IMG/VR virus record: IMGVR_UViG_3300048850_000064
Span: 39,743-103,742 of that record
Length of the DNA stretch: 64,000 nt
From: a virus
Lineage: Duplodnaviria; Heunggongvirae; Uroviricota; Caudoviricetes
Reading direction: 5' to 3' (one strand)
Shown here piece by piece: positions 2,578-51,804 of this stretch; position 1 is the first letter of the stretch, and the number at the start of each line of letters is the position of its first letter. The translations under genes were made by a program, and so were the position numbers. The notes under the pieces are model-generated. The model worked only from the letters and a program-made list of their open reading frames with translations. It was not told the DNA's origin and did not search any database.

Positions 2578-3125
2578 ATCTTCACATCGAAAGACCCGAG
2601 GCGGCAGTCGAGCATCTGCGCACCTACGGCTATGCTCCCGGCGGGTATCTGTGCCGCTGCGCCGAGGAAAATTGCGAGAGCTACGACGGTATCCGGCAGC
2701 TCGACGAAACGCCCCGTCTCGGCACCTTTATCGGCGACAAGCGCGCCTGGCGCTGCCGGCCCTGCGCCGAGAAGCTGCTCGCCGAAAGCCTGGCAAGGAA
2801 GTCGGACGAGCCGGTGCGCATGCCGCAGCTCGTGCGCGACAAGATGGTGCCGCGCGAGGGCTACAACGAGACCAATCATCAGGTCTCAAGGCCGGTCGCC
2901 ATCGCGCTCCTCGTCGGCAAGCTGCACTCGGAAGTCGCCGAGCTCTCCCTCGATCTCACCAATCCGGACGAATATGGCGACGTCCTCGAGATCCTCATGT
3001 CGATCGCCAAGCTGAACGGTGTTTCCGCAAGCGCGATCGACGCGGCGCGCCAGCGCAAGACCGAAATCAAGGGCGGCTTCGAAACCGCTAATTTTTGGAC
3101 GCCAGAGGCATTCATAAATGACTGA
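2574..3125 (+). CDS. Cys-rich N-terminus + MazG-like nucleotide pyrophosphohydrolase domain protein
   Basis: C-terminal EVAEL...DEYGDVLEIL resembles MazG EExxE...D metal-binding helix pair; ATGA coupling. Confidence 0.4.
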   Translation: MNLHIERPEAAVEHLRTYGYAPGGYLCRCAEENCESYDGIRQLDETPRLGTFIGDKRAWRCRPCAEKLLAESLARKSDEPVRMPQLVRDKMVPREGYNETNHQVSRPVAIALLVGKLHSEVAELSLDLTNPDEYGDVLEILMSIAKLNGVSASAIDAARQRKTEIKGGFETANFWTPEAFIND

Positions 3126-3565: not shown

Positions 3566-4651
3566 ATGGCATCTGCAGAAGACATCGCCAAGGCGCTTGG
3601 CGACGTGGTTGGCGTCAGCGACGAGGAGTCGACCGTCAAGTCGTTCCTCGACACCGGCTATCCGGAGCTCAATCACGCGCTCTCGAACGGCTGGGACAGC
3701 GGCCTGCCGGTCGGGCGCTGCATCGAAATCTACGGGCCTGAATCGTCCGGCAAGACGGCCGTTGCCTCCGCCGCAATGATCGCGGCGCAGCGGCAGGGCG
3801 GTTTCGCCGGCTTCAACGACCATGAACGGTCGTTCCAGCAGTATCTCTCCGAAGGTCAGGGGCTCGATGCGCGCCCTGGTCGCTTCCTCTACAAGAAGCC
3901 CAAGACCTTCGAGGAGAGCCTCGAGATCGCCGTCAAGACGGCCGTGGTGCTGCGCGAGAAGGCGCTCATCGACGGCAATGCGCCGATCTGCTGGACCTTC
4001 GACTCCCTCGCTTCGATGGTGCCGCACTCGGCGATGTTCGACACCAAGGGTAAGGAAAAGGATCCGAGCAAGCGCTCGATGCACGACAACACCGCGCTGG
4101 CGCGTGCGACCTCGGCCCACTTCCCGGCCTTCGCCCAGCACTGCGACGATTACGGCATCTGCGCCCTGTTCCTCAACCAGATCCGCATGAATATCGGCGT
4201 CGTCTACGGTAATCCGGAGACCACGCCGGGCGGCAAGGCGCCGAAGTTCTACTTCTCGCAGCGCATCGCTTTGAAGGCGCAGAAGATCACCAAGGGCGAG
4301 GGTGACAACGCCGAGGTCATCGGCTCGCAGATCACGGCCAAGATCATCAAGAACAAGATCACCCGGCCGTTCCGCACCGCGACCTGGCGCTTCGAGTTCA
4401 AGCCCGATGGCACCGGCTATTTCAACGTCTACCGCTCGATGGTCGACTTCCTGGTCTCCGAGGGCAAGCTGAAGAAGTCCGGCGCCTATATCGAGTGGAT
4501 CGACGGCAAGAAATACTATGCCGGCCCGCTCGCTGCGAAACTCGAGGAGGAAGGTGCGATCAACGACCTCAAGGCACTGCTGCCGGCCGTCTACGAGCCC
4601 GCGGTCGTCGCCGAGCTCGATATCGAACCGACGCTCGAAGCTGCGGAGTAA
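3566..4651 (+). CDS. RecA-family recombinase (RecA/UvsX-like)
   Basis: RBS aaggag at 3553; Walker A CIEIYGPESSGKT identical to RecA core; ~360 aa. Confidence 0.8.
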   Translation: MASAEDIAKALGDVVGVSDEESTVKSFLDTGYPELNHALSNGWDSGLPVGRCIEIYGPESSGKTAVASAAMIAAQRQGGFAGFNDHERSFQQYLSEGQGLDARPGRFLYKKPKTFEESLEIAVKTAVVLREKALIDGNAPICWTFDSLASMVPHSAMFDTKGKEKDPSKRSMHDNTALARATSAHFPAFAQHCDDYGICALFLNQIRMNIGVVYGNPETTPGGKAPKFYFSQRIALKAQKITKGEGDNAEVIGSQITAKIIKNKITRPFRTATWRFEFKPDGTGYFNVYRSMVDFLVSEGKLKKSGAYIEWIDGKKYYAGPLAAKLEEEGAINDLKALLPAVYEPAVVAELDIEPTLEAAE

Positions 4652-26483: not shown

Positions 26484-27359
26484 ATGGCTAATCGAGCGCC
26501 CACTCTTAAGGTCAAGCAGACCCTAACCAGCATCGTCGAGAACACACCGCTTTCGCAACCGCGCAAGGTAGCGGATATCGGCATCTCCGATGACGGCCGC
26601 GGCGTAAATAAGCTCTCGTTGAGCGGCGCCGACGCGTCCCTCTTCGAGATCCGCGGCAACGGCCTTTACCTGAAGGCGGGTGTGAAACTCGACTTCGAGA
26701 CGAACCCGTTCCTTGACGTCAAGATTGTGCTCGATGATCGTTCGATTGGGCGCGGCGCCGAGGCGACGAAATCGCTCAGGATCAGTGTTGCCGATCAGAT
26801 CGAGAAGTTCGGCACTGCCGGGAATGATAAGATGACCGGCACTTCCAAGGCCGATTATCTGGATGGTCGCGCGGGCAATGACGTGATCGACGCCGGCGCC
26901 GGGAACGACACGCTGATCGGTGGAACTGGTAATGACACCCTGATCGGCGGAGCTGGCGCCGACCGGCTCACCGGTGGGTCTGGCGACGACACCTTCGTCT
27001 TCAAGTCCATCACCGACTCGGCGAACGGCTGGTCAGGCTACGTGAATAATGTGGCCTATGGTCCTGCCTCTGGCGAAGGCTACCGCGACGTGATCACCGA
27101 TTTCGGTGGTAACGACCGTATCAGCCTTTCGGCGATCGACGCCAATACCAAGGTCGCCGGCGATCAGGTCTTCTCCTGGAAGGGGCTTGGCTCGTTCACG
27201 CGTAAACCCGGCGAGCTGATCTACAAGAAATTCGATGCCTCTGGCACGGCCAACGACAAGACGATCGTCTATGGCGATGTGAATGGCGACGGCCGCGCGG
27301 ATTTCCAGATCGAGCTGACCGGCTTAAAGACCCTCGATTCCGGCGACTTTTTCTTCTGA
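26484..27359 (+). CDS. RTX-type calcium-binding repeat protein
   Basis: Tandem GGxGxDxL nonapeptides (GTAGNDKMTG...GAGNDTLIGGTGNDTLIGGAGADRLTGGSGDD). Confidence 0.6.
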   Translation: MANRAPTLKVKQTLTSIVENTPLSQPRKVADIGISDDGRGVNKLSLSGADASLFEIRGNGLYLKAGVKLDFETNPFLDVKIVLDDRSIGRGAEATKSLRISVADQIEKFGTAGNDKMTGTSKADYLDGRAGNDVIDAGAGNDTLIGGTGNDTLIGGAGADRLTGGSGDDTFVFKSITDSANGWSGYVNNVAYGPASGEGYRDVITDFGGNDRISLSAIDANTKVAGDQVFSWKGLGSFTRKPGELIYKKFDASGTANDKTIVYGDVNGDGRADFQIELTGLKTLDSGDFFF

Positions 27360-28775: not shown

Positions 28776-28988
28776 ATGAACGATCTCACTGGTAAGCGTC
28801 GCTACCGCCTCGGCGGATTCTTCCGCCGCAAACTCATCCTGCAGGTCGAGTATCGCTGGCACTTCGACGTTTCGCACTACGGCGATCGCGCCTCCCGCAC
28901 AGCCTGGCGCGATGCAAAGGTCGAAGACCTCATGACGATTCAGGCCTGCCATACACCCTTCCCTATCGCGGAGCGAGACAACAAATGA
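28776..28988 (+). CDS. Hypothetical protein
   Basis: 70 aa. Confidence 0.4.
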   Translation: MNDLTGKRRYRLGGFFRRKLILQVEYRWHFDVSHYGDRASRTAWRDAKVEDLMTIQACHTPFPIAERDNK

Positions 28989-30403
28989 TCAACGGAAAGA
29001 CTCTGATCGACTGGGGCTTTCAGCCTGGTCCGCAGTTCAAGGCGATGATCGCCGAGGGTAACGAGCTGCGCAAGCGCGGCGTGGCCGACGACGAAATCAA
29101 GGAGCAGCTCAAGGATTATGTGCCGGCGCCGGTCGAGGAGATCTCGATGCGCACCAATAGGCTGCACTTCGGCGACTTCCTGAAGGACGGCATCAACCGG
29201 GCCAACGACGACGAGGTGATCAACTACTACGGTGTCGTCGGGCACATGGACGTGCTCATGCGCGTGCCGACGATCGTCCGTGGCGCGATCATGCCCGACG
29301 CCTGCCCTTCCGGCTCGGCGCCCGGCACGATCCCCGTAGGCGGCGTTGTGGCGACGGAGAACGCGATCCATCCGGGTTTCCACTCGGCCGACATCTGCTG
29401 CTCGATGGCGATCTCCGTCTTCAAGCGGCGCGAGGACGTCGGCCGCGTGCTCGATGCAGCGATGAAGGCGTCGCATTTCGGCGTTGGCAAGCGCACTGCG
29501 TCCGAGGTCCGACAGCACAAGGAGCTCGTCAACCTGGTCAACACCTTCGAGAACAACCCCTTCCTCAAGGGGCTCGAGGATTACGGCATTCACCACTTCA
29601 TGACCCAGGGCGACGGCAACCACTTCTTCTACGTCGGCGAGATCGAATCGACCGGTCAGTTGGCGATCGTCACGCATCACGGCTCACGCGGGCTGGGCGG
29701 CGGGCTCTACAAGCGCGGCAAGGCGGTCGCGCAGAAGCATACCGCTATCGTCGCACCGCGCGTCCCGCTCCACAACGCCTGGATCGATGCGGACACGCAG
29801 AACGGCCAGGACTACTGGTCGGCGTTGCAGACGGTGCGCCTGTGGACGAAGATGAACCACTTCGCCATCCACGACGCCGTTGCTAAGCGTATCGGCAATG
29901 CGGTCGTCGATCGCTGGTGGAACGAGCACAACTTCGTCTTCCAGAAGTCCGACGGCCTCTTCTATCACGCCAAGGGCGCGACGCCGTCCTATAGCGGCTT
30001 TGCGGCCGACGACAGCGGCGCCACGCTGATCCCGCTCAATATGGCGCAGCCGATCTTGATAACGCGCCATCGCAACAATGACGATGCCCTTGGCTTTGCT
30101 CCGCACGGCGCCGGCCGCAACCTGTCACGCACGGCACATATGAAGCGCCTGGCCGCGGAGTTCGGCGATCACCGGGGTCTTTCGCCGCGGGCGGTCGAGA
30201 CCATCATCGAACGCGAAACCAAGGGGCTCGACGTGCGCTTCTACACCGGCGTTGCCGACGTCTCGGAGCTGCCGAGCGCCTACAAGAACGCCGACCAGGT
30301 GCACAAGCAGATCGCCGGCCAGGGCCTCGCCCATGTCGCTGACCGGATCATGCCGCTCGGCTCGATCATGGCCGGCGAAATGAACTGGAATCGGAAGAGG
30401 TAG
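28985..30403 (+). CDS. rtcB: RtcB-family RNA 3'-phosphate/5'-OH ligase
   Basis: HHGSRGLG and HGAGRN metal-binding motifs; 472 aa typical size. Confidence 0.7.
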   Translation: MINGKTLIDWGFQPGPQFKAMIAEGNELRKRGVADDEIKEQLKDYVPAPVEEISMRTNRLHFGDFLKDGINRANDDEVINYYGVVGHMDVLMRVPTIVRGAIMPDACPSGSAPGTIPVGGVVATENAIHPGFHSADICCSMAISVFKRREDVGRVLDAAMKASHFGVGKRTASEVRQHKELVNLVNTFENNPFLKGLEDYGIHHFMTQGDGNHFFYVGEIESTGQLAIVTHHGSRGLGGGLYKRGKAVAQKHTAIVAPRVPLHNAWIDADTQNGQDYWSALQTVRLWTKMNHFAIHDAVAKRIGNAVVDRWWNEHNFVFQKSDGLFYHAKGATPSYSGFAADDSGATLIPLNMAQPILITRHRNNDDALGFAPHGAGRNLSRTAHMKRLAAEFGDHRGLSPRAVETIIERETKGLDVRFYTGVADVSELPSAYKNADQVHKQIAGQGLAHVADRIMPLGSIMAGEMNWNRKR

Positions 30404-31491: not shown

Positions 31492-31605
31492 ATGACAGCA
31501 CTCGCAGCAATTGGCGCGATCCTTGTGATTGCGCTGGTAATGCTCGGCGCCGACAGGGCGCTCGGGTTTTTCGACAAAAATGGCAAGAAAAGAAGGAGAT
31601 CGTAA
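31492..31605 (+). CDS. Small membrane peptide (37 aa)
   Basis: MTALAAIGAILVIALVMLGADRALGFFDKNGKKRRRS; TAGATG coupling. Confidence 0.35.
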   Translation: MTALAAIGAILVIALVMLGADRALGFFDKNGKKRRRS

Positions 31606-31606
31606 C

Positions 31607-32464
31607 TTGCAGAAATTGGTTCTTGGGGTCATCGGCGTGGCCGGACTGTTCGTCTTCCTCACGCTTTTCGGATCGTTCTACACGATCGACCAGGGCGAAC
31701 GCGGCGTCATCACGCGCAATGGCGCCGTGATTGGCTCGGCCGATCCGGGGCTGCACTTCAAGCTGCCCTTCGTCGACGCCGTGCATGAAATTTCGGTGCA
31801 GACCGCGGCCGTCGCCTTCGAAAACGAGCCGGTCTATTCCGCCGACCGTCAGTCGGCATCTGTGACCTTCTCGATCAACTATTCGGCGCTGCCGGGTGAG
31901 GTGAAGACGATCTACGCCCGCTACGGTTCACTGGAGAGCCTGGAATCGCGCGAACTTTCGCGCCAGGCCCGACAGCAGATCAAGAACGTGTTCGGCCAGT
32001 TTACCGCAGAGACGGCGATTCGCGAGCGAGGGCGGCTGAATGCCGAGGTCTACGACGCGCTCGCCAATCTCGGTGACGGGCTGATCAAGGTCGAAGGTTT
32101 GCAGATCGAGAATATCGACTTCTCCGACGCCGTCGAGACTGCCGCGGAGGATCGCGCAAAGGCCGAAATGAACGTCCAGACGAAGAAGCAGGAGCTGGAG
32201 AAGACGAAGGTCGAGGCGCAGATCACGGTGACCGAAGCCAAGGCGCGAGCCGACAGCGAAGTCGCAGCGGCCACGGCAAGAGCCGAGGCTAAGCGAATGG
32301 AAGGTGATGCCGAAGCTGCCGCTATCCGCGCGAAAGGCGATGCGCTGCGTGAGAATCCCGGTCTCGTCCAGCTCATTCAGGCAGAGCGTTGGGACGGGGT
32401 GCTGCCGACGACGATGGTGCCCGGCTCGACCGTGCCCTTCATGAACATGGCTGCGACCAACTAA
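31607..32464 (+). CDS. SPFH/band-7 (prohibitin/HflC-like) membrane protein
   Basis: N-terminal TM then SPFH-like core and long Ala/Glu-rich coiled coil; TTG 31607 after aaggag RBS (alt ATG 31580 overlaps upstream peptide). Confidence 0.55.
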   Translation: MQKLVLGVIGVAGLFVFLTLFGSFYTIDQGERGVITRNGAVIGSADPGLHFKLPFVDAVHEISVQTAAVAFENEPVYSADRQSASVTFSINYSALPGEVKTIYARYGSLESLESRELSRQARQQIKNVFGQFTAETAIRERGRLNAEVYDALANLGDGLIKVEGLQIENIDFSDAVETAAEDRAKAEMNVQTKKQELEKTKVEAQITVTEAKARADSEVAAATARAEAKRMEGDAEAAAIRAKGDALRENPGLVQLIQAERWDGVLPTTMVPGSTVPFMNMAATN

Positions 32465-33168: not shown

Positions 33169-33549
33169 ATGCAGATTTGGACGAAAGAGCGGGTGCAGGA
33201 GCTTCTCAAGGTCAGCGACAAGGCCGTCGCCCGCGCCATCCTCGCACTCTATTCCCGACAAACGGCCTCGGAGCAGGCCGGCGAGCAGACCGATGTCGAG
33301 AACGGCGTCGGCTTCAACAAGATCGACGCGCCGTTCCTGTCGTCGATCGCCAAGGCCCTGCCCCGCTACAACAACCACATGACCGAGCGCCAGCTCAGGA
33401 CGGCGCGCAAGATGCTGCCGAAATACTGGCGCCAGCTCTGCGAGATCGCCAATGAGCGCGAGGCGCAGAAAGAGCCCTCGGTCGACCCGGTCATCGCCGC
33501 CCAAAAGATCCAGGAAGCGCCGGCCCGGCAGTTCGGCCGCTTCTCCTGA
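33169..33549 (+). CDS. Hypothetical protein
   Basis: 126 aa. Confidence 0.5.
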   Translation: MQIWTKERVQELLKVSDKAVARAILALYSRQTASEQAGEQTDVENGVGFNKIDAPFLSSIAKALPRYNNHMTERQLRTARKMLPKYWRQLCEIANEREAQKEPSVDPVIAAQKIQEAPARQFGRFS

Positions 33550-33554
33550 TTCGC

Positions 33555-33594
33555 CAGTCATTGCTGACTGATTGGGGCGGCTACGCTATAATCG
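33555..33594 (+). promoter_or_regulatory. Operator palindrome CAGTCATTGCTGACTG + CGCTATAATCG
   Basis: Read directly. Confidence 0.5.
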
Positions 33595-33617
33595 CCGTTT
33601 TCAATCAGGAGGTAATG

Positions 33618-33746
33618 ATGAAGAAGAATCCGGTCGCCAAAGCGTTGCGTTCGCCCCATCTGCGGACGCAAGCCGTCAAGCCGAAGCGGGGCCGTGGCTC
33701 CTACAATCGGAAGAGGAAAAAGCTTGAGAGGGAGTTCACGCCATGA
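33618..33746 (+). CDS. arfA: ArfA-like alternative ribosome-rescue factor
   Basis: AGGAGG RBS; NPVAKALRSPHLRTQAVKPKRGRGSYNRKRKK parallels ArfA [28 protein letters not shown]. Confidence 0.45.
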   Translation: MKKNPVAKALRSPHLRTQAVKPKRGRGSYNRKRKKLEREFTP

Positions 33747-33815
33747 AGCCGATGCTATAACACTCGCAAAGCGCGATTCGCGCGCCGTCGAGACCTCGCG
33801 GGTGTTGGATAGAAA

Positions 33816-34061
33816 ATGCTGGATGTAATCGCCCTCTATATGACCGTGCAGATCCTCGGCGGAGCCCATCCTGAGGTGAAAATGCTGCCTGGCAATTTCA
33901 TGACCGTCGAGCAGTGCGAAAAGCTCTCGGCCATGGCGAACAAGATGGCGCCAGAGGCCAAGTTCGACAAGGGCCGGCCGGTCATCCAGGAATATGCGGA
34001 ATGCGTGCCGGTCACGGATCTCGCGCTCGAGCAGGCAAACAAGGTCATCAGTGGCAAATAG
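33816..34061 (+). CDS. Hypothetical secreted/membrane protein
   Basis: Hydrophobic N-terminus. Confidence 0.45.
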   Translation: MLDVIALYMTVQILGGAHPEVKMLPGNFMTVEQCEKLSAMANKMAPEAKFDKGRPVIQEYAECVPVTDLALEQANKVISGK

Positions 34062-34062
34062 C

Positions 34063-34092
34063 AAAAAGGCCCGCGATTACGGGCCTTTACGG
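34063..34092 (-). terminator. Hairpin terminator (strong for minus-strand gene, weak bidirectional)
   Basis: GGCCCG-cgattac-CGGGCC; on minus strand followed by TTTTTGC. Confidence 0.55.
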
Positions 34093-34094
34093 GG

Positions 34095-34328
34095 TTAGGC
34101 GGCTATGTCGAGCGCCTCCTTCTCTATCGCTTCGGGCCAACGGTTGCCGGCGTAACAGATGACCTCGCGGGCGAAAATTGTCGAATCGGTTGAAAACTGC
34201 TTGAAATAGGTAATCCAGTCGGCCCTGATACCTTCCGTCTCGAAGAACTCATCCGCCGCGGTGAGTATGTGATTCTGGAACCGTTCGACCAAATCCTCGA
34301 ACGACAGATCCTGTTGTGACGTTGCCAT
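34095..34328 (-). CDS. Hypothetical protein
   Basis: 77 aa minus-strand ORF. Confidence 0.45.
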   Translation of the reverse strand: MATSQQDLSFEDLVERFQNHILTAADEFFETEGIRADWITYFKQFSTDSTIFAREVICYAGNRWPEAIEKEALDIAA

Positions 34329-49820: not shown

Positions 49821-50000
49821 ATGAACCAGATCTTCGTTCCGGCAATCGACTTCAGCTCAGCGCGCGAAAGGCGCGCTGCAGCCGAGCGTGCGGCCAAGGT
49901 CAAGCGCCGGCAGTTCATCAAAGAGGTCGTAATCGACATCGTCGGCCTTGGCTGTCTCGCCTGGTGCGCCTACGTCGCGATCGACCTCGCCCTCTTCTAG
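49821..50000 (+). CDS. Small membrane protein
   Basis: ggagag RBS; C-terminal TM. Confidence 0.4.
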   Translation: MNQIFVPAIDFSSARERRAAAERAAKVKRRQFIKEVVIDIVGLGCLAWCAYVAIDLALF

Positions 50001-50167
50001 TCGACCAGGAGCTCGCCGGGGCTAGGAACCGGTGGGCTCCAAGGGAGCCGCCGGGCGGCCGGCAACGCCAGGAACCGACCGCGGCATTTCCAGGAACCGG
50101 CACATCCACGGCTCACCATGGCTCCTACCGCGGCTCCCGCGCCACGCGCGGGCCGCGCGCCTCGCTC

Positions 50168-50212
50168 GTAGTTACGCTTCGCGTGCTCGTCTGCGCTTCA
50201 AAGCGTAACTAC
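50168..50212. repeat. 12-bp inverted repeat GTAGTTACGCTT-N21-AAGCGTAACTAC at left edge of low-GC island
   Basis: Read directly. Confidence 0.6.
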
Positions 50213-50614
50213 ATCTCTAGCGCTCAATACGCGCGCAACATGCGAACGACGTCTATTTCGTCTCGCTTATAAACACGCGCTGTATAGCGCATATTACGAT
50301 TGTCTAAATAAGCAGCGATTTGTGCTTTCGCTTGCTTGCGCGCGCGCTCACGTTCACGCTTGCGTCTGACAGTTTCTGTCACGTCGATCGATGATTTAGA
50401 CATTGCTAAATCTTTCGCGCTGACGTCTGTAATAAGCGCTCATGCGCTTGCGCTTGTCGCGCTCACGCAATGCGCGTCGAAGATCGTTGTTTGCTTTGCG
50501 CGTGTTAAGCAGCGCTGCTTTCAATCTCAGATATATTAGCATGTTCTTGAATCTCGCTTTCGAGTGAAACGAAAGAATGACGCGCTGCAGAGCGCGTCAT
50601 TCATAAGTGACTGA

Positions 50615-51205
50615 TTATTGAGCGTAACGTTCAAGAATCGCTTGTGTCAGTTTCGAGTCTGTATTGAGCGCGTAAACGTCTTTCGTCGACGTTTCGCGCA
50701 AGATATCGAGTGCACACAATGCTTTCAAAGACATCGATGCTTGACGTTTTGCAGCGCTCACGATTGTTTCGCGACGTGAGATATACTTTTCTCTTTCTTT
50801 CGCGACTTCAATCGCTTTGTCTTTCTTGCTTGTGCACGACGCGTAAGCATCGTTGCGCGTCATCGTGAGACTATCACGATGCAGATTGATTGCAGTTTCA
50901 AGCACAGTTCTTGCATTGTCTGTCTTGATATTAGCAACTGCTTTGAAAGCGAACTGCAGATAATCTGCAGTTCTAGCAATCGCTTTCATGCAAAACTTCG
51001 AATTTACATTCTCGTAAGCGTTGATGAATGCAGAGCTCATGTCTTGCTGCGCAAGCAGCGCGACGAATTGTGTGCTCGCATAGACTTGCTTTGCTTTCTT
51101 CAACAGAGCAATTGATGCATCGCATGCAGTTGCTTTCTCTTGCGTCTCGAAAGCGATACGAGTTTCGATAGCAGCGACGAAAGAGTTTACAGTTTCGTTT
51201 GTCAT
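50615..51205 (-). CDS. Hypothetical alpha-helical protein encoded in low-GC island
   Basis: 196 aa minus-strand ORF; local GC ~45% vs ~62% elsewhere. Confidence 0.5.
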   Translation of the reverse strand: MTNETVNSFVAAIETRIAFETQEKATACDASIALLKKAKQVYASTQFVALLAQQDMSSAFINAYENVNSKFCMKAIARTADYLQFAFKAVANIKTDNARTVLETAINLHRDSLTMTRNDAYASCTSKKDKAIEVAKEREKYISRRETIVSAAKRQASMSLKALCALDILRETSTKDVYALNTDSKLTQAILERYAQ

Positions 51206-51783
51206 TGTCTTGTCTCTCTTGTTTAACGTTGACTGTTTTATTGTTGTTTCATTCTGTCATGTCGCGCAAAGCGCAAAGCGCTTGCGTCGAAGATGATCTA
51301 TTCAGTTGTCAAAGAGCGCTGCATTTCTGCAGTGACTCTTTCTTCGCATGTTTCTGTGTGAGTCGTCAAGTGACTTTATGCGCTTGTGACTTAAAATATG
51401 TGCTTTTCTGCGATAGCGTTTAGTTCGCTCATAGAGACGCATAGACGCGCGTTCTTGCTTGTGTGTCGCGAGATACTCACTTGTGCGTCTATCGCGCTCT
51501 ACGCGCTTGTGTGTGCGATTGTGCGTCTATCGCGTCTGTCACTGTCATTGCACGTTGCTTGCTTGTCATCGTCGCGCTGATCGTCGCGCGCTCGACATGA
51601 TCGACGCCCGATCCCTCCTAGAGAATTAGCGAAGTCTTAGAAAATGCGACGTGACGTGATCCGGATGCCGCCTGTCACCCTCGTCTCCCCGGTTCCTATC
51701 CACCTCTGTCTGTGGGCTGCCCAGGAAGGTCCGGATCTTTGCGGTGGATCGACGGATGGTTGGTTGCTTGGTGGTTGATGGTG

Positions 51784-51804
51784 ATCAGTCACTATTGACT
51801 GACT
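51784..51804 (+). promoter_or_regulatory. Operator palindrome ATCAGTCACTATTGACTGACT
   Basis: Read directly. Confidence 0.45.

Follow-up and report, generated by a model that had tools for sequence, protein, structure and literature searches.

A predicted 42-residue ArfA-like peptide encoded by a ~116-kb phage

A 42-codon gene at positions 33618-33746 (+ strand) of the window, the 64,000-nucleotide stretch of viral DNA analysed here, is probably expressed by the phage and codes for a minimal ArfA-family peptide, one that would provide constitutive, tmRNA-independent ribosome rescue of the RF2 type. The region around the gene reads caGGAGGtaATGATGAAGAAGAAT, and the encoded peptide is MKKNPVAKALRSPHLRTQAVKPKRGRGSYNRKRKKLEREFTP. 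We infer RF2-dependent rescue from homology together with the anatomy of the gene. In the literature, ArfA is viewed as a narrow back-up system of the Gamma- and Betaproteobacteria that is silenced by tmRNA. The window gene differs from textbook ArfA in its regulatory design, with an ordinary stop codon and minimal length, and in its host range, phages of Alphaproteobacteria; it belongs to a large and mostly unstudied set of phage ArfA genes that lack the tmRNA gate.

The large ORFs of the window match a UvsX-like recombinase, an SbcCD-like (gp46/47) nuclease, ribonucleotide reductase, rIIA, rIIB, RtcB, a helicase and an ATP-dependent DNA ligase, and the genes are densely packed and mostly on the same strand. 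The RtcB gene has 75-80% DNA identity (megablast) to Rhizobium phages RHph_N1_10, V1VFA-S and B1VFA (116-122 kb), and a protein identical to that of the window is on record from a 115,768-bp JGI contig. Because of this gene content and these megablast relatives, we regard the window as part of a ~116-kb lytic phage with a T4-like replication module and a Rhizobiales-type host. No tRNA or tmRNA genes were found in the window, and an Rfam search of it gave no matches.

The arfA-like ORF has ATG codons at 33615 and 33618 and ends with the TGA at 33744-33746. A Shine-Dalgarno sequence, AGGAGG (33607-33612, + strand), lies 5 nt from the ATG at 33618 and 2 nt from the ATG at 33615, and both it and the start are identical in L007, the closest relative. 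The start at 33618 is favoured because its spacer to AGGAGG is 5 nt. An earlier reading of this DNA, made from the sequence only, had pointed to a 42-aa ORF behind a perfect AGGAGG ribosome binding site (RBS), and the ORF is present at 33618-33746. While that interval does encode 42 aa, the peptide string that the sequence-only reading wrote out has 43 (MM...) and begins at the ATG at 33615. The IMG gene call for the protein is a 61-aa version with a TTG start, which is also in the mechanical ORF list. This version, starting from the TTG at 33561, was rejected, as its frame is disrupted in L007 by an indel just upstream of the RBS; because the indel breaks the upstream frame, we take the short 42-aa form to be the gene. 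No contig gave an exact match to the 61-aa IMG protein. An antisense ORF of 168 aa (33558-34064) failed the third-position GC test and was set aside.

The peptide matches the Pfam ArfA family, PF03889, with 27.2 bits against a curated gathering threshold of 25.5 (E=2.6e-6), a margin of just 1.7 bits, and the alignment places peptide residues 4-36 on profile positions 11-43 of 44. The Pfam profile search that had been suggested as a check on the ArfA assignment was, in short, positive, and the PF03889 label is also precomputed on the identical protein in a public collection. When phmmer was run against all PDB sequences, the sole matches were the E. coli ArfA chains 5H5U, 5MDV, 5U4I, 5MGP and 7OJ0; the alignment, peptide 2-36 against E. 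coli ArfA 11-45, is ungapped, with a modest pairwise E of 0.008. Scanning 1.84 billion representative proteins exhaustively with HMMER gave 38 relatives at E<=1e-3, all of 34-90 aa, with the consensus NPxAKALRSPxLRxxxVKPKKGKGSYxRK. A profile made from the relatives, with the window peptide and E. coli ArfA excluded, scored E. coli ArfA at 42.4 bits, and the top of 10,000 shuffles, in which both peptides were shuffled, reached 16.0 bits. A profile of 11 relatives, run against the PDB, likewise recovered ArfA chains only (E=2.6e-5), the next match being at E~1. The likeness to the functional core of E. coli ArfA that the earlier reading had noticed is thus real, being ungapped over ArfA 11-45 and not an effect of composition, which the shuffle control excludes. 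Given the Pfam, PDB and shuffle-control results, the homology of the predicted peptide to ArfA is well supported.

NCBIfam gave no match to the peptide, and PHROGs gave just weak matches to families without assigned function. A single-sequence word-indexed search returned the query itself alone, the relatives having come from the exhaustive HMMER search. A consensus peptide query matched nothing in a phage collection, probably because of low-complexity masking. The Pfam family DUF7230 (PF23876), considered further below, scored 8.9 bits with the window peptide (E=2.3; threshold 27 bits), over the N-terminal 15 residues only.

ArfA folds on the ribosome only. The roles of individual residues in E. 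coli ArfA were taken from a review (PMC8012679), and E. coli numbers exceed those of the window peptide by 10. The core, encoded by 33624-33722 (+ strand), can be aligned to residues ~12-45 of E. coli ArfA with no gap and includes the helix, L15, T17-V20, RGRGSYNRK and KK. Positions kept with respect to E. coli are P23, F25 (as L), R26, V29, K34-G-K-G-S-Y39 and R41-K42, and the conserved non-basic positions, in window numbering, are N4, P5, A7, L10, P13, L15, G25, G27, S28 and Y29. E. coli residues 15-24, a short helix at the decoding centre, correspond to window P5-H14; F25, an RF2 contact, corresponds to L15, where the family has L, F or Y; and Q27-E30, the strand added to the RF2 beta-sheet, correspond to T17-Q-A-V20 (PMC8012679). 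The middle part of the peptide (L15, T17-V20) would therefore appear compatible with RF2 contact. The basic C-terminal KGKGSY, which loops into the mRNA entry channel, is represented by RGRGSY, the basic channel contacts R41-K42 by R31-K32, and the KH motif, which binds a channel pocket, by KK (PMC8012679). RGRGSYNRK pairs column for column with KGKGSYMRK, and across the family there is little or no variation at G25, G27 and R31.

The N-terminus is where the two peptides part. About 46-48 residues of E. coli ArfA are visible in structures, and residues 1-14 become ordered with the RF2 switch loop on RF2 opening (PMC8012679). The window peptide has MKK before the equivalent of N14, and a counterpart of E. 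coli residues 1-10 is missing. In addition, A18, needed for RF2 activation (PMC8012679), is replaced by K8. An equally short N-terminus is found in 33 of 69 viral relatives and in the chromosomal alphaproteobacterial relatives, and the long N-terminus and A18 are features of the E. coli mechanism that are not known to define the ArfA family.

In bacteria, RNase III or an intrinsic terminator leaves the arfA message truncated within its ORF; because of this truncation, the product is tagged by tmRNA, unless trans-translation is saturated, and the last 17-18 residues of ArfA are hydrophobic and dispensable (PMC8012679). The window gene shares with E. coli ArfA (YhdL; PF03889) a small, basic product and a post-core tail similar in length to that of the mature truncated form; it differs in encoding 42 aa rather than 72, in having an ordinary stop, and in lacking both the RNase III/terminator hairpin and the hydrophobic C-terminal extension. 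The TGA comes ten residues past the conserved R-K, making the peptide roughly as long as E. coli ArfA in its mature, truncated form. A terminator-like site or ArfA-type regulatory hairpin was looked for within the arfA ORF and not found, the search for an ArfA-type hairpin or terminator having extended past the ORF as well, and folding of the 233-nt transcript region was no better than that of shuffles (z = 0.13). The first terminator-like element downstream of arfA is outside the ORF, a G+C-rich hairpin at 34065-34088 between the convergent genes 33816-34061 (+ strand) and 34095-34328 (- strand). With an ordinary stop and no internal terminator or hairpin, the peptide is expected to be made at its active length and should escape tagging by tmRNA-SmpB. 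Among 69 distinct viral relatives, the tail beyond the K42 equivalent has a median of 9 residues, and is of 12 residues or fewer in 42; an ordinary stop soon after the core is typical of the viral genes.

Upstream, a gap of 65 nt contains a sigma-70-like promoter candidate, CTGACT-17 nt-TATAAT (33564-33592, + strand; 10/12 matches), which L007 has nearly base for base; CATAAT and TACAAT are found at a comparable distance upstream of arfA in L100 and L101. The promoter stays a candidate because consensus matches in the surrounding 20 kb were not above chance. Upstream, arfA adjoins a gene for a 126-aa protein (33169-33549, + strand), as it also does in L007 and L100-L102. Downstream is the 81-aa gene at 33816-34061, which probably shares the arfA transcript.

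The sequence-only reading would have been weakened had the ORF not been conserved in related phages; we found syntenic orthologs under purifying selection. P0002, the closest relative at 73% identity, is encoded on a 1.7-kb contig with the gene order 120-aa gene, arfA, 81-aa gene and minus-strand gene, that is, with the same neighbours as in the window, and the changes in the arfA ORF of L007 are mostly synonymous or conservative. The order RtcB, Band_7, arfA, DUF3768 is common to L007, L008/L009 and L100-L102. Orthologs occupy the same position in the 115.9-kb contigs L008/L009, in L021 (a 119.9-kb IMG/VR contig) and in L100-L102, contigs of 117-119 kb in 'Mesorhizobium sp.' genome bins; at least five divergent relatives share this position. 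The Mesorhizobium-bin contigs belong to the same phage family as the window and have its gene order, and their arfA ortholog has ~50-60% identity over the core. Pairwise dN/dS values over the 31-codon core were 0.12-0.35, and between L100 and L101 arfA has 4 synonymous changes and no non-synonymous one. In phage RHph_N1_10, RtcB and DUF3768 are present and no arfA-like ORF was found in the 15 kb after RtcB. Because this phage lacks it, we interpret arfA as an accessory gene of a family of ~116-120 kb phages of Rhizobiales-type hosts. The SPFH/Band_7 (prohibitin-like) protein gene, at 31580-32464 (+ strand) in the window, is a conserved landmark between RtcB and arfA that is kept in all arfA-bearing relatives and absent from RHph_N1_10. 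The RtcB-arfA interval in the relatives is apparently a variable accessory region; in L008/L009 (1657-4698) it contains genes for NMNAT-NUDIX and NAMPT, which look like counter-defence genes that restore NAD.

The gene for the RtcB RNA ligase (28985-30403, + strand; phrog_1075, E=4e-90) lies 3.2 kb upstream of arfA on the same strand, close by, as had been noted earlier. The earlier reading linked the two genes in a defence against host RNA-cleaving systems. In its strongest form this explanation makes the peptide a dedicated partner of RtcB, with RtcB re-ligating nuclease-cut tRNAs or mRNAs while the ArfA-like peptide clears the stalled ribosomes, and as such we think it unlikely. The conserved RtcB-arfA order in relatives speaks for the link, but at least seven unrelated small genes separate the two, and RHph_N1_10 has its RtcB without arfA. 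In Caulobacter phage Cr30 and the related contig L020, arfA lies between two RNA ligase genes, and the NAMPT and NMNAT-NUDIX genes of the L008/L009 interval are similar to known NAD-restoring counter-defence genes; yet RtcB/Rnl homologs adjoin arfA in just two lineages of ~70 distinct viral loci, most loci lack an RNA-repair gene within 5 kb, and the literature searched names no defence system countered in this way. Because of the RtcB of RHph_N1_10, the intervening genes and the many loci without an RNA-repair neighbour, the proposed counter-defence pairing is retained as a possibility. At 4 of 40 loci the arfA-like gene lies within a tRNA array (L036, L046, L055 and L060; 7-17 tRNA genes), and the tRNA-array and RNA ligase contexts fit a role in translation or RNA damage.

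A different explanation is that the peptide occupies the A site and the mRNA channel when they are empty, possibly binding RF2 as well, without bringing about release, so acting as a blocker of trans-translation or as an RF2 trap; phage proteins would then be spared ssrA tagging, or host termination would be disturbed, and there would be no rescue. The main reason to keep a peptide that binds but does not activate under consideration is the short N-terminus, which lacks the stretch that becomes ordered along with the RF2 switch loop, together with the Lys at the A18 position, given that ArfA(A18T) binds and recruits RF2 without activating it (PMC8012679). Constitutive synthesis from an mRNA with a stop codon and the overlap of the ArfA and SmpB binding sites (PMC8012679) would also suit a blocker. 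On the other hand, the chromosomal relatives of the Caulobacterales and Hyphomonadaceae are equally short at the N-terminus, and their hydrophobic tail or in-ORF terminator marks them as tmRNA-gated back-up rescue factors; within the family, conservation is highest in the N-terminal NPxAKALRSPxLR, which fits a specific protein partner such as RF2; and a blocker would make phage translation stall too. We judge a blocker or trap to be decidedly improbable. Least credible of all is that the ORF arose by chance, or encodes a basic low-complexity peptide, for nucleic-acid binding or packaging, unrelated to ribosome rescue. The peptide is indeed short and rich in lysine and arginine, and its pairwise E to E. 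coli ArfA is modest, but the outcome of the shuffle control (42 vs 16 bits), the restriction of PDB profile matches to ArfA, the conservation of non-basic positions, the purifying selection and the conserved gene order already disfavour such a reading.

If the peptide is a rescue factor, as we think probable, it would act on ribosomes that have stalled on reaching the 3' end of a truncated mRNA. Its basic C-terminal half (KPKRGRGSYNRKRKK) would probably insert into the mRNA entry channel, which is empty in such ribosomes, and RF2 would then hydrolyse the peptidyl-tRNA, leaving a ribosome that can be recycled. The phage would in this way supply constitutive, tmRNA-independent rescue in a class of hosts that reportedly has only tmRNA and ArfB. 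A likely benefit would be that ribosomes stay in supply during the cutting of host and phage mRNAs, whether by phage-induced decay of host mRNA or by RNA-targeting host defences. ArfA-RF2 pairs are reported to be species-specific, and so it is not a given that the peptide works with RF2 from hosts whose lineage lacks ArfA. If the peptide is active, phages rewire ribosome quality control during infection, and a protein of 42 residues would be an easy reagent for RF2 recruitment in Alphaproteobacteria.

Relatives of the window gene are widespread in viruses. Confirmed relatives, found with two narrow peptide patterns, are present on at least 314 IMG/VR contigs, and a search of 5.8 billion proteins gave 3,135 profile matches among the candidates scored. 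Nearly all of the profile-matched proteins are labelled PF03889, and many carry the JGI name 'stalled ribosome alternative rescue factor ArfA'. IMG names the identical window protein ArfA, and NCBI names the Mesorhizobium-bin ortholog 'ribosome alternative rescue factor ArfA' (RWB95602.1 and others). The window gene is therefore a confirmation of existing automatic annotation and not a discovery. The earlier statement that such peptides are rarely annotated is right for several published phage genomes, which miss the gene, but wrong for IMG and NCBI PGAP; because these annotate it routinely, the novelty of the gene had been overestimated.

Unannotated ArfA-like ORFs were found in Caulobacter phage Cr30 (L002 2950-3103), flanked by the two RNA ligase genes; in Agrobacterium phage OLIVR5 (L001 3001-3147), as well as OLIVR6 and relatives; and in Ochrobactrum phage ORM_20 (L004 3001-3198). 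The OLIVR5 and ORM_20 ORFs lie opposite annotated minus-strand genes, and in Roseobacter phage CRP-212 the ORF (L005 ~2995-3120) is beneath the annotated gp38 CDS. Other cultured phages with a copy are Brevundimonas phage Bajun, Pelagibacter phage HTVC027P and ~69 Acinetobacter T4-like phages. Among published cases, g10 of Citromicrobium phage RXM was noted as ArfA (PMC8953757), and gp30 of pelagiphage HTVC027P is ArfA, reported to be highly expressed early and late (PMC12753301). Like the window protein, both of these and the Mesorhizobium-bin ArfA are PF03889 members in phages of Alphaproteobacteria. The earlier phage ArfA reports rest on annotation or transcript levels, and our literature search found no functional study of any phage ArfA.

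In cellular genomes, ArfA is reported to be confined to the Gammaproteobacteria and (some) Betaproteobacteria, and one survey found arfA in 0 of 2,376 Alphaproteobacteria (PMC11633108). The window gene thus differs from bacterial arfA in being phage-borne, in a host class reported to lack arfA. Our scan of 185,579 species genomes, based on an 11-sequence alignment and on the N-terminal pattern only, gave 9 confirmed loci: 4 in Caulobacterales/Hyphomonadaceae, 1 in an unclassified Pseudomonadota bin and 4 in CPR bacteria. The same N-terminal pattern scan found no locus in the Rhizobiales among these genomes. Because only the N-terminal pattern was used, the cellular and viral counts are not directly comparable. 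In the CPR loci L016-L019 (Paceibacteria and Saccharibacteria bins), the small ORFs resemble the family in the N-terminal half alone (NPIAKALRSPxLRxRVV), their C-terminal part being different.

Members of DUF7230 (PF23876) include Acinetobacter Acj9p003 (L003 2989-3120), the OLIVR5-type ORFs and chromosomal ORFs of the Caulobacterales/Hyphomonadaceae. Their N-terminal half, NPxAKALRSPxLRxQxVK, and their basic tail, Y-x-RK, are shared with the phage ArfA clade; they differ in having KKVYSRK, without the G-K-G of KGKGSY. A profile of the phage ArfA clade scored DUF7230-type sequences at 34-49 bits, and the DUF7230 profile scored Acj9p003 at 45.4 bits and L012 at 33.1 bits. These scores suggest that DUF7230 is a branch of the ArfA superfamily that has gone unrecognised. 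Chromosomal genes of this type in the Caulobacterales/Hyphomonadaceae are at L012 (3989-4153), L013, L014 and L011, and some chromosomal members retain the non-stop design. The L014 ORF (4001-4162), on a Hyphomonadaceae chromosome, has an in-ORF terminator at 4107-4135 with an 11-bp stem and a T-run, and chromosomal relatives in the Caulobacterales have hydrophobic C-terminal tails, for example AAFFICSFI.

A broader interpretation, which we put forward tentatively and hold to be doubtful as a whole, is that the minimal ArfA with a stop codon is mainly a viral invention, or a tool spread by viruses, for taking over ribosome rescue, that DUF7230 is a second branch, and that the beta/gamma-only distribution is an artefact of missed small ORFs. 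The users would be phages of Alphaproteobacteria and of marine bacteria, and the gene would give them a constitutive bypass of tmRNA tagging, or even a shut-off of trans-translation, in hosts lacking ArfA.

Phages carry tmRNA genes. The window gene is like these and the phage tRNA arrays in being an accessory gene that would sustain the translation apparatus during infection, though the molecule and the step differ. BrfA of Bacillus and ArfT of Francisella are, like ArfA, small peptides that depend on a release factor for rescue and probe the mRNA channel when it is empty, BrfA being RF2-specific and tmRNA-gated (PMC8012679). No sequence relationship of the window peptide to BrfA or ArfT was detected, and their N-terminal architecture is unlike that of the window peptide.

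Some viral relatives are longer than the window peptide. The marine viral contigs L030, L033 and L048 encode the ArfA core followed by a C-terminal extension of ~65 aa (…GQWSARKAQMLAKQYK…) that has no Pfam match; P0149, a protein of this kind of 118 aa, is on 60 contigs, including Tara contigs; and L025/L026 join the core to a different extension of ~110 aa. Elsewhere in the window, a segment of ~1.8 kb (~50000-51800) has a GC content of 0.52 against ~0.61, a reversed AT skew and only short scattered repeats; no ORF backed by third-position GC, tRNA or Rfam match was found in it, and, lying ahead of a minus-strand gene block, it may be a regulatory or origin region. The gene at 26484-27359 encodes a 291-aa protein with RTX calcium-binding repeats (HemolysinCabind, E=7.5e-20) and a serralysin C-terminal-like region, an unusual cargo for a phage.
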